Virus record (IMG/VR): IMGVR_UViG_2939521961_000016
From: a virus
Taxonomy: Duplodnaviria; Heunggongvirae; Uroviricota; Caudoviricetes
DNA: 63,271 nucleotides
Direction: 5' to 3' (one strand)
Made by a program: the position numbers. Shown here piece after piece: positions 54,001-63,000 of this stretch (position 1 is its first letter; every line of letters begins with the position of its first letter).

Positions 54001-57000
54001 TTAACAACATCAATCATTCCGGGATCGACACTCATCAATCATCACATCGTGAGGGGTTTTCCATTCTTCTAACTCTGTTACAAGAGCAAGGCGAATATCC
54101 TCAGCCGACATCAAACGACACTGAGCAATAGTCCATTCTCGTACGCTGCAACGTGAGGCCGTACCCCGGACACGGGTAAACATCCGGCAATTCCAGCTTA
54201 CCACCTATTTAACCCCCTCCCCGTAACGAGACGAAGAAATGAGCACTCATCATGTTGTGAGTTTTTCAGGCGGTCGGACATCGGCGTACCTCGTCCACCT
54301 TATGGAGCAACGCAGAAAAGCTGGTGAAAACGTTCATTACATACTCATGGATACGGGATGTGAACACCCGCTGACGTACCGGTTTATTCGGGAGGTTGTG
54401 AAGTTCTGGGATATTCCGCTAACCGTGTTGCAGGTCGATATAAATCCAGAGCTTGGGCAGCCAAATGGTTATACGGAATGGGAACCAAAGGATATTCAGA
54501 CGCGAATGCCGGTGCTTAAACCGTTTATGGACATGGTAAAAAAATATGGCACGCCATACATCGGCGGCGCGTTCTGCACTGACAGATTAAAACTCACCCC
54601 CTTCATAAAATACTGCGATGACCATTTCGGACAAGGGAACTACATCACGTGGCTGGGTATTCGTGCAGACGAACCCCGTAGGCTGAAACCGAAACCGGGC
54701 GTCCGGTATCTTGCCGAACTGTCAGATTTTGATAAGTCGGATGTTATCCGGTGGTGGCGAAAACAACCTTTTGATTTGCAAATCCCGGAGCACCTCGGGA
54801 ACTGTGTTTTCTGCATCAAAAAGTCAACGCAAAAGCTGGGGCTTGCATGTAAAGACGAACCTGGTCTGATGCGGGTTTTTAATGAACTGGTTACAGGCAA
54901 ACACGTCAGGGATGGTCATCGCAGAACAGGTAAAGACGTTATGTACCGTGGTCACCTGACGCTTGACGGGATTGCCAGGATGTATGCCGACAGCGACTAC
55001 AGCAATTTGTATCAAGCGATGGTGCTGGCCAAGCGGTTTGATACTGGTTCGTGTTCCGAATCATGTGAAATCTGGGGTGACCAATTGGAGTTGAAATTCG
55101 AAGAGGTAGTGGCATGACAATCGTAAAAACCCATACCGGCATTGTGATCACCAAAGACGGCCCGCAGGTAAAAAAACTTCACCAGACAGAGCGGATGTGG
55201 GTCGTCGGCAAAAACGAGTTTTACCACAAAGAAACCGGACGCCGCCACTTTGCAGAAAATACGCGCCGCAGACTGCTGATCGACACAATCAAGCCTGTCG
55301 AGGTGAAGCATGTTTAAACAGAACGAAAAATCTATCGCTCAAATTGCTGAGTATATCCCGCGTACGTGCCGGGGTATGCAGTTGCAGGAAGCCAAAGCGC
55401 GCCTGGAGAAAAAAATTGCGCTCTATATCGATGACGGCTGTGATGCTGCCGTTCTTAACGCGGCTTTCGCACCAGCTCTTAACTGTCATACGCGGGAATC
55501 TTTTTTTTCGTGCATCGCAGCGCAGATCCACAAAGGAGGCAACCAGTGAGCAAAATTAATTACCAGGCACTGCGTGAGGCGGCAGTAGCAATTGAAACAG
55601 TAGCAACGCCTCAAAAATTGCTGGCATTTCGTATGAAAGCCACACCTCAGGTTGTGCTGGCACTGCTGGATGAACAGGAAAGAAACCAGCAATACATTAA
55701 ACAGCGCGACCAGGAGAACGAGGATATTGCGCTAACGGTAGGGAAACTGCGTGTTGAGCTTGAGGAAGCAAAATCAAAACTCAACGAGCAACGCGAGTAT
55801 TACGAGGGAGTAATCGCGGATGGAAGTAAGCGCATAGCAGAACTGTCTGCTAGCCACAGCAAATTGCGCGACACAATGGCTGGCATCCACAACACAATCC
55901 GAATGGATGGCGGCTATACGCCACTGGCAGCAATCCTTAACGCTGCTAAACGCGCATATGAAGAATCAGCAAGCGCCGCTGGCATCAAGGAGGAGTCTGA
56001 GTGATGGTCATTTCACCTATAACGCTGAAAGCGGCGCAGGAATTTATCGCACAGCACCACCGACACAATAAACCACCAGTGGGGCATAAATTCAGCATTG
56101 GTCTGAGAAATAATGCCGGAGAATTGATAGGTGTGGCGACAGTTGGTCGACCTGTTGCACGACATTTGGACGATGGATTAACGCTTGAAGTAAATCGCAC
56201 ATGTACCACAGGAGAACGCAACGCTAACAGCGCGCTTTATGGTGCTGTCTGGCGGGCAGCAAAAGCTATGGGTTATCAACGTTGTATTACGTACACCCAG
56301 GCAGATGAATCAGGAGCATCTCTTCGCGCAGCTGGTTTTGTTCGTGTGAAAGAGCTTCCTCCAAGAAAAAGCTGGGCGGAATCAAGCGTCGCCCTGCGGA
56401 GTAAACGCGATCCGGTCGGAAACGGTGGTATTCCTCGTGTGCTCTGGGAAATCAGGAGAATGAGTACCGCTGGCATTCGCATCAAAGGAGAGTGAGATGA
56501 ACGGACAAATCTCAATTGTTCGACCGGGAGCATGTGACGATCGCGAGATACGAATGATTATTCGTCTGGCGATGGGGAAAACAATAACTGCTCTCATTAC
56601 TCCAGAAAATCTCGCATTAGCATTAACCGGAAAGTCAGACCTGCCAGTAGAGCTAAAGCTGCGAAATGTTGAGATTAAGGTGAGTATCAGCAATGAATAA
56701 CAATCCTCGCATTGGCGGGGATTTCTTTTATCTGAAAAGGACAGAATACATGATTAACAATATTGCAAATCAGTCTTCGTTTCCGGCTGCAACAATTGAC
56801 AGCCAGATGCTGTTGAAAATGGTTAATGAGGCGCGGAGACTGCGAGGCGAAAAAGAAGTACGCAACAACGACTTCATTGCACGCATCAAAGATGAGCTTG
56901 AGGGGGAGGGTTACGAAATTTTCGTAACCCCCATGGATAAGAAAAAAGGCGGAGCGGATCAGGTGGTTATAGTGATGACCTACAAGCAAGCCCTGCGCGT

Positions 57001-60000: not shown

Positions 60001-63000
60001 AACGCGCTATGACGAAAAAATACACCCTCATTTACGCAGATCCCCCCTGGACATTCCGCGACAAAGCAACCGATGGTCAACGCGGTGCAAGTTTTAAATA
60101 TCCGGTCATGAGTCTTCTGGATATCTGCCGCCTCCCGGTATGGGAACTGGCAGCCGAGAATTGCCTGTTGGCTATGTGGTGGGTGCCTACACAACCACTT
60201 GAAGCATTGAAGGTTGTAGAAGCGTGGGGCTTTCGTCTGGTGACGATGAAAGGATTAACCTGGAACAAATGCGGGAAAAGACAGACCGACAAGCTGGTCA
60301 TGGGTATGGGTAGCACCACTCGCGCTAACAGCGAAGACTGCCTTTTTGCAGTGAAAGGAAATCTGCCCGAACGCATTAACGCCGGAATAATCCAGTCATT
60401 CACTGCACCACGCCTTGATCACTCCCGCAAGCCGGATATGGCTCGAGAAAAACTTGTGCAACTTCTTGGCGATGTTCCCCGGATAGAACTGTTCGCCCGC
60501 CACACCTCGCATGGATTTGATGTATGGGGTAACCAATGCGGCACACCATCCATTGAGATGGTTCCGGGTATTGTTAAATTTCTGGAGAAAACCAATGAGC
60601 GAAAAAACGACGTTGACAAAGGCATCACCAGTTGAATTAAGGCAGTGTCTGGAAATCGCAAATCAACTTGCCAGAAGTGGAATACGATTTGTTCCAATCC
60701 CGATTACAGCAGATGCAGAACTTCATCTGTTTGGTGAAATTCTTTCCCGAAAGCTGGATGAACTGGAAAAGCTGGTAGAAGAAGCTGACACCTCACCAAC
60801 CGTATAACAGCCCCACCGACATTAAAATATCAGGAGAAAAAAATGAACGCAGTGCTCACAGAATTGAACAAATTAGGAAAAGCATCAGCCGAAAGTATTT
60901 CTAAAGGTCTCAATATTGATTTGAATGACGTTATTGACACTCTATGGAAGTTAAAAAACCAGGGGGTAGTAACTGTAAAAAATGGCATCTGGCAGGCAGT
61001 TGCAAGGGAAGTGGACAAAAAACCAAATATCGCCTCAGTGCAGCCAGTGCAGCCAGTGCAGCCAGTGCAGCCAGTGCAGCCAGTGCAGCCAGTGCAGCCA
61101 GTGCAGCCAGTGCAGCACAACATTATAGGCGACCTGCTACGTAAATCACGGAAAGAAGCGCGCCGCGCCGGGCGGAAACAGAAACGATGGGAGGGTGCAT
61201 GTAAGGCGTTGCAAGAACTGAATAAATACCGTGACTTGATCAACGAATTGTCAGAGTGAGCGAATCACAGAGAGAATATTTTGAGAAACACCCCGCGTAC
61301 ATTAATATTGTTTTTCCTTTCTCTAATGACGGGCGGTATCCTGTTATTCGCAGGAACAACATTATTTATTTTTGTTGCCCGGCTAACTGCGAGGATAATG
61401 ACATGAAAATCACATTTGAAAGTTACGGTTTAACAGCAAGTGTGGTTATATCCAGCTCTATATTCGAAAGCCGCAAACATCAGCATATCGTTGATGCAGT
61501 GAAACTCAAAGCCCCGGAAGTTACCGTCACAACACATGGACTTTTCAGGATACGAACGACGTTGACTACAACACACCTCTCGGCATGCCGTGTTTATGAT
61601 ATGGCACTCAAGGAATACAACCAGTGTTCGTCCTGATCCAGCGCGGGCAGTCTTTCGTTGATGCCAACAACTATCCGGTAGAAATATGCAAGGTAACTCT
61701 GACTCAGGTGATCTACCGAAGGCTCGACGGCAGAACCAGAGCCACTTCAATTGGTGCATTTAATGAAGAATTTGAGCGAATAGAGCACAACGAACTGCAT
61801 ATGATTAAAGCGGAAATTGAGAAGGAAAAGCATATTGCCAGCCTTCGAAAAATGCGCCGTACATCAATCAACTAACAACCGCCTTCGGGCGGTTTATTAT
61901 GCTGTTGAAAAACATGTAGAAAAGGAGAGCATACTATGGAAATCAACTTAATGACCGAAAAAGAAGTTTCTGAGTTGTTACAAAAAAGGCGCACAGCTTT
62001 GTATAATTTGCGAAAAAAACACGGATTCCCTGATCCAGTACTTACTCATCCGGCGCGATATAGTCGTCAGGCCGTTGAACAATGGCTTAAAGCCGGAGGA
62101 ATTAACCGAGCTGTTTAGCGTGCCAGAAAATTTTATCAGCATACAACTCATACGCATCTTTCTGTTCCGACAACCAGTCGTGTTTATTATACACGGCCAT
62201 AACTCCCCCAAGTTCATGCCCCAGCATTTTTTCAGTGACGTGGGGCATAATTCCTTCCCCAGATAAATTCGTTACCAGAGAACGCCTAAAATCATGCGTT
62301 CTCCATTCAGGAATATCAATTTTCTCCCTTAACTTTTTCATGTACAAATTAGCCGACGAACGATCAATAGGTTTATCTATTTCCTGCCCGGGGAATAGCA
62401 CATCAAAACCCGCATTAAGCAATCGCTCAATATAAGGCTCAACCTGAGTAAATATCGGACGCCGGATAATATTACCCATCTTTGAATGCTCTTTAGGGGT
62501 TGTCCAGACCAGATCTTCCATGTTGAACTCACTGGCTGTAGCGAGACGTAGCTCAGAAAGCCTGGCCCCCCATAGCAATAGCAATTGATGTAACAGCTTG
62601 TTGGAAGTAACCACTTTTGAGTTCTCCAGTGCCAGCCAGATCTTTGCCAGTTCCGTATAGGTAAGTACGCGACTCCCCACATCTGGTTTCTTCCCAATAT
62701 TCTTTACACTAAGTTTGAGTAATTCGCATGATGGGATTAACTGGCGGCTGATACACCAGTTAATAACTGAACGCAGTTGTAACAACAGAACACGAGCCTT
62801 TTTCTTGTTGAGGCTTTCTTGCTTGTCAAAAAAGCGAGCCCAAGCCGATACAGGGATACCGGCAACTGGCGAGTCTTCAAACTGTGTGTACATAGTGTTG
62901 TACACAACAGATCTATAAAGCGTCTGAGTATTGGGTTTCAGGCCGCTAACATACTTATCCCACCACTGATCCAGGCATTCTTTTAATGTCAATTCGCCAT

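Follow-up and report, generated by a model that had tools for sequence, protein, structure and literature searches.

Three probably independent, putative nucleic-acid-modifier genes in the leftward early region of a Stx-converting lambdoid prophage: a probable rRNA methyltransferase pair, a NinC-type PP-loop gene and a Mom-like GNAT gene

The window analyzed here, the whole 63,271-nucleotide stretch of IMG/VR virus record IMGVR_UViG_2939521961_000016, is, by its sequence, an Oslovirus prophage of the PA2/PA8-type, lambdoid and Shiga toxin (Stx)-converting, and this report concerns its interval 54239-60635, which encodes a PP-loop protein related to lambda NinC, a Mom-like GNAT protein, and an MT-A70 methyltransferase with its partner PNB-2. 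We consider it probable that this interval forms a variable, accessory stretch of the leftward early region, holding three nucleic-acid-modifier genes that are independent of one another: the rRNA methyltransferase pair, NinC, and the Mom-like GNAT. Sequence identities, families, folds, and gene layout are shown directly, and the methyltransferase has published biochemistry; which reactions NinC and the GNAT carry out, and on which targets, we infer. The initial annotation had placed the PP-loop protein and the MT-A70 methylase in one early-left operon and proposed that both modify phage DNA to evade host restriction; this functional reading is mostly unsupported and is not what the evidence favors. 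Much of what replaces it is already known: NinC and MT-A70 have identical or nearly identical counterparts among the deposited PA8 proteins, and the MT-A70 counterpart has been experimentally characterized as an rRNA methyltransferase. The elements on which the argument turns are the following:

54239..55117, plus strand: NinC-type PP-loop protein of the PAPS-reductase clade, 292 amino acids (aa), with the PP-loop SGGRTS at nt 54266-54283, invariant C113, C126, and C189-x2-C192, and tail cysteines C272/C276.
56001..56495, plus strand: 164-aa Mom-like GNAT of the XF1762 family; translation probably begins at the ATG at 56004.
59539..59557, plus strand: intrinsic terminator CCCCGAC-ATCCC-GTCGGGG followed by TTTT, between PNB-1 and PNB-2, an exact match to the terminator in PMC10810198.
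59581..60012, plus strand: PNB-2 (gp6 of PA8), the 143-aa methyltransferase specificity subunit, with 100% identity to its PA8 counterpart and a stop codon that overlaps the start of MT-A70 (ATGA).
60009..60635, plus strand: MT-A70 N6-adenine methyltransferase, 208 aa, orthologue of M.EcoPA8orf6770P / M.EcoGV, with DPPW at D11-W14 (nt 60039-60050).

The genomic context is that of a Stx phage. Genes for the Stx A and B subunits lie at about 36.1-37.4 kb (about 36150-37390, minus strand) by alignment to phage VT2phi_272, which is why we call the prophage Stx-converting, and 54239-60635 is 97.6% identical to Stx phages phiPA2, phiPA8, and VT2phi_272 across 84% of the interval length. Synteny with VT2phi_272 gives a plus-strand gene order of repressor, then kil, gam-like, recT, exo, ssb, DUF2303, PP-loop gene, and MT-A70 gene, with int at the window end on the strand opposite to the last two. 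The early-left placement of the initial annotation is thereby borne out. The single operon is not: between the PP-loop gene and the MT-A70 gene stand three genes on the minus strand (57545-58706) and, after them, a strong intrinsic terminator (59539-59557).

Comparison with other phages separates the genes further. A segment of about 55578-56787, which carries the GNAT gene and begins within an Ead/Ea22 open reading frame (ORF), replaces a different segment in PA8, as judged from blastn breakpoints against that phage, and also differs from PA2. Phage P13374 has the methyltransferase pair, with NinC and the GNAT both absent; many Stx2a phages keep the methyltransferase and have NinC reduced to its last 18%; and NinC homologues occupy nin regions that lack both the methyltransferase and the GNAT. 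In the collection of complete E. coli genomes searched, nearly half (2,629 of 5,426) match some part of the interval, and none covers more than 86% of it. In their distribution, then, NinC, the GNAT, and the methyltransferase appear as separately exchangeable accessory genes in mosaic cassettes, not as one DNA-modification operon. We also considered a single functional module of NinC, GNAT, and MT-A70 and rejected it on the same kind of evidence: the methyltransferase pair occurs alone in P13374, NinC alone in nin regions, and the GNAT alone in phages Kapi1 and ZF40.

Both sequence motifs singled out by the initial annotation are present in the ORFs to which it assigned them, with SFSGGRTSAY at residues 8-17 of ORF 54239-55117 (nt 54260-54289) and YADPPW at residues 9-14 of ORF 60009-60635 (nt 60033-60050), and a hidden Markov model check upholds both family assignments at levels well above chance (Pfam PAPS_reduct and MT-A70; phrog_424 and phrog_359). 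The MT-A70 ORF matches Pfam MT-A70 (PF05063) with an E-value of 1.3e-22 and 81 bits (cutoff 23.9), residues 5-176 spanning profile positions 1-172 of 172, and falls into phrog_359 at 2.8e-117. Its product is identical to PA8 M.EcoPA8orf6770P at 207 of 208 residues, including an identical C-terminus of the full-length type found in Shiga toxin-producing E. coli (STEC); the sole difference is a conservative substitution, E50 here and D in PA8. The enzyme of the O104:H4 phage P13374, which has the same gene pair, is identical at 206/208 positions. The stop codon of PNB-2 and the start codon of MT-A70 overlap as ATGA, forming a translationally coupled pair (59581-60635), and the pair is kept in Klebsiella phage Kp4862-1 at 54%/45% identity (PNB-2/MT-A70), which supports a two-subunit enzyme. 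PA8 shares the gene order, the terminator, and the start/stop overlap, and its PNB-1 and PNB-2 are 100% identical to those of the window, whereas the segment between its NinC gene and the anti-repressor is not the same. At this level of identity, we take 59581-60635 to be the published M.EcoPA8orf6770P-PNB-2 holoenzyme.

That enzyme was characterized by Gong, Chakraborty and Koudelka (NAR 2023; PMC10810198), who found that M.EcoPA8orf6770P alone has background-level activity on DNA, including dam- and dam-/dcm- DNA, and that it co-purifies 1:1 with PNB-2 into a holoenzyme that prefers RNA over DNA by more than 13-fold, 16S over 23S rRNA, and 30S subunits over free rRNA; PNB-1 is reported to lie outside the methyltransferase. 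In the same study, an active PA8 methyltransferase gene led to higher spontaneous induction and amoeba killing (virulence), a phenotype that is not restriction escape, and the DPPW-to-APPA mutant failed to complement, while gp6-gp5 was reportedly induced in lysogens nearing stationary phase as its own terminator-bounded unit (PMC10810198). The preferential methylation of 16S rRNA/30S reported for the PA8 enzyme (PMC10810198) is a property that we carry over to the window on the strength of the 207/208 identity. In the mechanism we propose, the DPPW site of the MT-A70 subunit would bind S-adenosylmethionine (SAM) and the target adenine, and PNB-2, a predicted winged-helix protein, would direct the subunit to 16S rRNA in the 30S particle. 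The outcome would be higher spontaneous prophage induction and so more Stx release, with methylation of DNA (GATC) a side activity at most.

PNB-2 homologues at about 54% identity also adjoin exo in phages phi80 (JX871397.1, 27534-27953) and HK639 (HM208537.1, 29975-30400), with no MT-A70 among the matches listed for these two phages; proteins of this type may also serve a function that does not involve the methyltransferase.

The PP-loop protein belongs to the lambda NinC family. Its match to Pfam PAPS_reduct (E = 2.9e-8, 34.4 bits, cutoff 22.5) covers residues 5-72 only, it falls into phrog_424 at 2e-92, and it is 100% identical to a PA8 protein annotated 'NinC'. Lambda NinC itself aligns to it end to end without gaps at 80% identity (229/288), sharing the PP-loop, CxxC, and SCSESCE tail. 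The two genes differ in location: the lambda gene lies between ninB and ninD in the pR operon, whereas the window gene is leftward early, downstream of exo/ssb and DUF2303. The nin region of the close relative VT2phi_272 is without ninC. A homologue (P0097), 55% identical, occupies the position between ninB and ninE (ninB-[X]-ninE) in lambdoid prophages, and we therefore read the window gene as a NinC orthologue moved into the left arm. In lambda, ninC is nonessential and has no function listed (PMC10695390). The initial annotation had given the substrate of the PP-loop enzyme as unknown, which stands; it had missed the orthology to lambda NinC and the anti-Dnd relative described below.

An alignment of 48 family sequences has S10, G11, G12, R13, S15, D38, T39, G40, E42, H43, C113, C126, C189, C192, and C276 invariant and C272 conserved in at least 90%. 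The AlphaFold model (predicted local distance difference test, pLDDT, 87) is confident except for the tail 267-292, which bears C272 and C276. Its nearest neighbors by fold are the [4Fe-4S] APS reductase and two Fe-S thiolases, NcsA and TtuA. DndC, SspD, and BrxP share the PP-loop and the PAPS-reductase clade with NinC, and DndC has been described as an ATP pyrophosphatase of the PP-loop type that carries a 3-Cys 4Fe-4S centre along with a cysteine dyad (PMC10853773). The cysteine set of NinC is compatible with a 3-Cys Fe-S centre plus cysteine dyad of the DndC kind. The best PADLOC match of NinC is SspD (51.7 bits, profile positions 1-121 of 277), with DndC and BrxP next at about 16 bits. In the literature library searched, we found no paper linking NinC with DndC, SspD, or the PP-loop.

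The nearest relative for which a phenotype has been reported comes from a Vibrio phage. Protein p0018 of phage 44E38.1, a PAPS-Dam fusion, is 56% identical to the NinC-type domain over 281 aa, with all conserved cysteines kept, and transfer of p0018 together with the adjacent p0019 into a sensitive phage allowed growth on a Dnd-carrying host (Piel et al., bioRxiv 10.1101/2021.05.05.442762). The Vibrio protein differs in its C-terminal Dam domain (PF05869); the window protein is stand-alone, with no Dam-type methylase adjacent. NinC-Dam (PF05869) fusions are found repeatedly, in three clusters that include one from Salmonella, and in the nin region of Salmonella phage Oslo (L011, 2480-3876) ninC overlaps at its start with a small DNA methyltransferase gene. 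The Dam fusions, the Oslo overlap, and the anti-Dnd relative all point to DNA as the context in which NinC works. The Oslo arrangement can also be seen as the unfused counterpart of the PAPS-Dam fusion proteins.

From these relatives we infer an anti-phosphorothioate-defence or DNA-sulfur role for NinC. The protein would be an ATP-pyrophosphatase that adenylates a nucleic-acid substrate and would pass sulfur via a cysteine-ligated Fe-S centre and the cysteine pair of its flexible tail, as is thought for DndC and SspD; its biological role would be to counter Dnd/Ssp-type phosphorothioate defences, like the 56%-identical Vibrio phage protein. Because NinC is accompanied by neither an NTPase nor a DNA-recognition partner, we expect that it would either draw on host components (IscS; DndDE or SspBC of the host) or interfere as a decoy. 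A broader proposal, which we advance tentatively and hold to be rather doubtful, is that the NinC family is a stand-alone phage Fe-S PP-loop enzyme that uses IscS, DndDE, or SspBC to phosphorothioate phage DNA or to jam phosphorothioate sensing, and that the Stx prophage stacks three modifiers (backbone sulfur, Mom-like base acylation, and rRNA N6-methyladenosine). If true, this would give a first function to a lambda gene that has been without one since the genome was sequenced. The chain of identity runs from lambda NinC (80%) through the window gene to the PAPS domain of a natural Vibrio anti-Dnd determinant (56%), and since lambda is easily manipulated, the anti-phosphorothioate-defence hypothesis is directly testable.

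A number of observations weigh against such a role. The matches of NinC to DndC and SspD are confined to its N-terminal half and lie far below family cutoffs (15.5 bits against a cutoff of 290.4 for NCBIfam DndC, TIGR03183). Neither an NTPase (DndD/SspC/BrxC) nor a DNA-recognition partner (DndE/SspB) was found among the 52-63 kb ORFs with Pfam, PHROGs, and PADLOC, or beside NinC homologues, and synthesis of phosphorothioate reportedly requires a PAPS-domain protein together with an NTPase (PMC12914056). Nor did the Pfam and PHROGs matches include a desulfurase gene near the NinC gene. The Vibrio transfer involved two genes, one of them a PAPS-Dam fusion, and never the PAPS domain on its own (bioRxiv 10.1101/2021.05.05.442762). 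The Fe-S ligation proposed for NinC is read from the cysteine pattern, and the correspondence of these cysteines to the DndC or APS-reductase ligands is putative.

The third gene, the Mom-like GNAT ORF at 56001-56495, lies inside the interval but went unmentioned in the initial annotation. It scores 209 bits against NCBIfam XF1762_fam (cutoff 50) and belongs to phrog_1384 (1.1e-43), the PHROG that also contains Mu Mom (7.8e-84). Its AlphaFold2 model (pLDDT 86) adopts a GNAT fold; the top PDB entry in a Foldseek search, at ranks 1-2, is 8bv8 (Mu Mom S124A; E = 8.5e-8, query TM-score 0.70), with generic GNATs close behind; a PDB search by sequence gave no match at E <0.67, and Mom was found by the fold search only. 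An hhalign comparison of the XF1762 alignment with the single Mu Mom sequence, used for residue mapping only and not for homology given a probability of only 2-3%, pairs H20, R66, and S77, all three invariant in the XF1762 alignment, with Mom H58, R111, and S124. In Mu Mom, a GNAT that moves glycine from Gly-tRNAGly to adenine N6 in double-stranded DNA, R111 and S124 are indispensable, and the H58A mutant is strongly impaired (PMC13219725). Compact and Mom-like, with the residues that align to the catalytic Arg and Ser of Mom retained, the window protein probably acylates or aminoacylates a nucleic-acid base.

Not all comparisons with Mom are favorable. Besides the low hhalign probability, the score against Pfam Mom (PF25680) is 25.0 bits, just under the gathering threshold of 27.1, and most of the helix-turn-helix (HTH)-like insertion of Mom (residues ~175-209), which is essential for activity (PMC13219725), is missing from the model: about 26 residues with one short helix stand between strands 114-119 and 146-152, and the Mom segment has about 50. 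Mu Mom also differs in length (241 aa versus 164 aa here), and the window GNAT gene is without a Com-like regulator and is early rather than late. The XF1762 family comprises 3,842 clusters at 50% identity (E <=0.001); its domain occurs elsewhere in fusions with C5 and D12 DNA methylases as well as with polyvalent-protein domains, and its gene is stand-alone in phages Kapi1 and ZF40. A literature search for 'XF1762' found no papers, and the family appears to be a large Mom-like one without a characterized member.

The explanation closest to the initial annotation is that both enzymes modify the phage's own DNA in lytic growth to escape restriction, MT-A70 by methylating adenine in DNA as an orphan enzyme and the PP-loop enzyme by adding a further modification. 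Part of what speaks for it also counts against an rRNA methyltransferase. The PDB sequences closest to MT-A70 are the 'MT-a70 family protein' chains 7f4r/7f4l (1.9e-12), followed by METTL4 and METTL3, and we take 7f4r/7f4l to be subunits of a ciliate DNA N6-methyladenine (6mA) methyltransferase. PADLOC assigns the protein to its Type II MTase model at 285 bits, both genes lie on the early-left side, and the fusion or adjacency of NinC to Dam-type enzymes suggests a DNA context. M.EcoGV (its P13374 equivalent is 206/208 identical to the window enzyme), when overproduced without its PNB-2 equivalent, reportedly methylated GATC in vivo, and the rRNA assignment comes from a single paper that used a SAM-consumption assay and left the modified nucleotide unmapped (PMC10810198). 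Against a DNA methylase stand the background activity of the purified enzyme on dam- and dam-/dcm- DNA and the more than 13-fold RNA preference of the holoenzyme, the reported induction of gp6-gp5 toward stationary phase as a separate unit, and a measured phenotype that is one of induction frequency rather than restriction. Host Dam, moreover, already methylates GATC in E. coli, so a second GATC methylase would add little protection, and single-molecule real-time (SMRT) methylomes of STEC with M.EcoGV homologues show GATC and CTGCAG motifs only (PMC6602927), which is close to the result that the initial annotation itself had named as counting against its proposal, namely no motif attributable to the methylase. 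We regard restriction escape as unlikely, the latent GATC activity of overproduced M.EcoGV keeping a DNA reading of MT-A70 alive as a minority view. The label 'anti-restriction DNA methylase' would spread an annotation that the sole biochemical study contradicts. The gene matters instead as a tuner of Stx prophage induction and virulence.

Two further explanations concern the PP-loop protein. If it were an auxiliary metabolic gene product, a true (P)APS reductase boosting host sulfate assimilation in infection, one would understand the PAPS_reduct score above the gathering threshold, the PHROGs category 'auxiliary metabolic gene', the invariant DTG, and the disordered C-terminal tail with its conserved cysteine, which resembles the mobile ECGLH tail of CysH. 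Yet the protein falls far under the cutoffs of the NCBIfam cysH/PRK02090 models (TIGR00434, 16.1 versus 165.1; NF002537, 22.6 versus 154), E. coli has its own cysH, and the repeated fusion or adjacency to DNA adenine methylases, the DNA-metabolism neighbors in the nin region, and the anti-Dnd phenotype of a relative all speak against it; a metabolic role is highly improbable. An enzyme acting on RNA (tRNA/rRNA thiolation or a lysidine-type reaction) and retuning host translation together with the rRNA methyltransferase would suit the reported 16S rRNA activity of the neighboring MT-A70 and a 3-Cys Fe-S pattern that is typical of tRNA thiolases. We judge it quite improbable, as the closest sequence matches are SspD and PAPS_reduct and not TilS (14.8 bits), the Dam fusions and the anti-Dnd relative point to DNA, and NinC and the methyltransferase occur independently of each other.

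The remaining genes of the interval are as follows:

55114..55549, plus strand: pair of short ORFs (67 aa and 79 aa) without assigned function, which overlap the NinC-like gene at its stop; phrog_1226; identical or near-identical in PA8.
55510..56004, plus strand: Ead/Ea22-like protein (Pfam Ead_Ea22, 1.4e-26).
56497..57502, plus strand: 67-aa ORF of unknown function and 269-aa anti-repressor-like protein (phrog_1222, phrog_1726).
57545..58706, minus strand: three-gene island of a HigA-like HTH protein, a lipoprotein, and a CopG/ParD-like ORF, named after the annotations of identical genes in VT2phi_272 and PA8.
58848..59525, plus strand: PNB-1 (gp7 of PA8), ORF6N-domain anti-repressor-like, 100% identical to the PA8 protein (Pfam ORF6N, 1e-19).

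The terminator at 59539-59557 is the top terminator-like site in a scan, and a promoter scan gave sites no more numerous than in shuffled sequence. Within the minus-strand island, the HigA-like HTH protein has no obvious HigB partner, and the lipoprotein is small. Outside the interval, the immunity-side segment of the window (about 44275-46420) differs from that of VT2phi_272, whose repressor is adjoined by a restriction endonuclease and DNA methyltransferase pair (L004, 7191-9610) with no DNA match in the window. Downstream of MT-A70, a DUF1627 ORF (60843-61259, plus strand) contains a 9-bp tandem repeat at about 61000-61080 that encodes about eight copies of VQP and is repetitive in all three frames.

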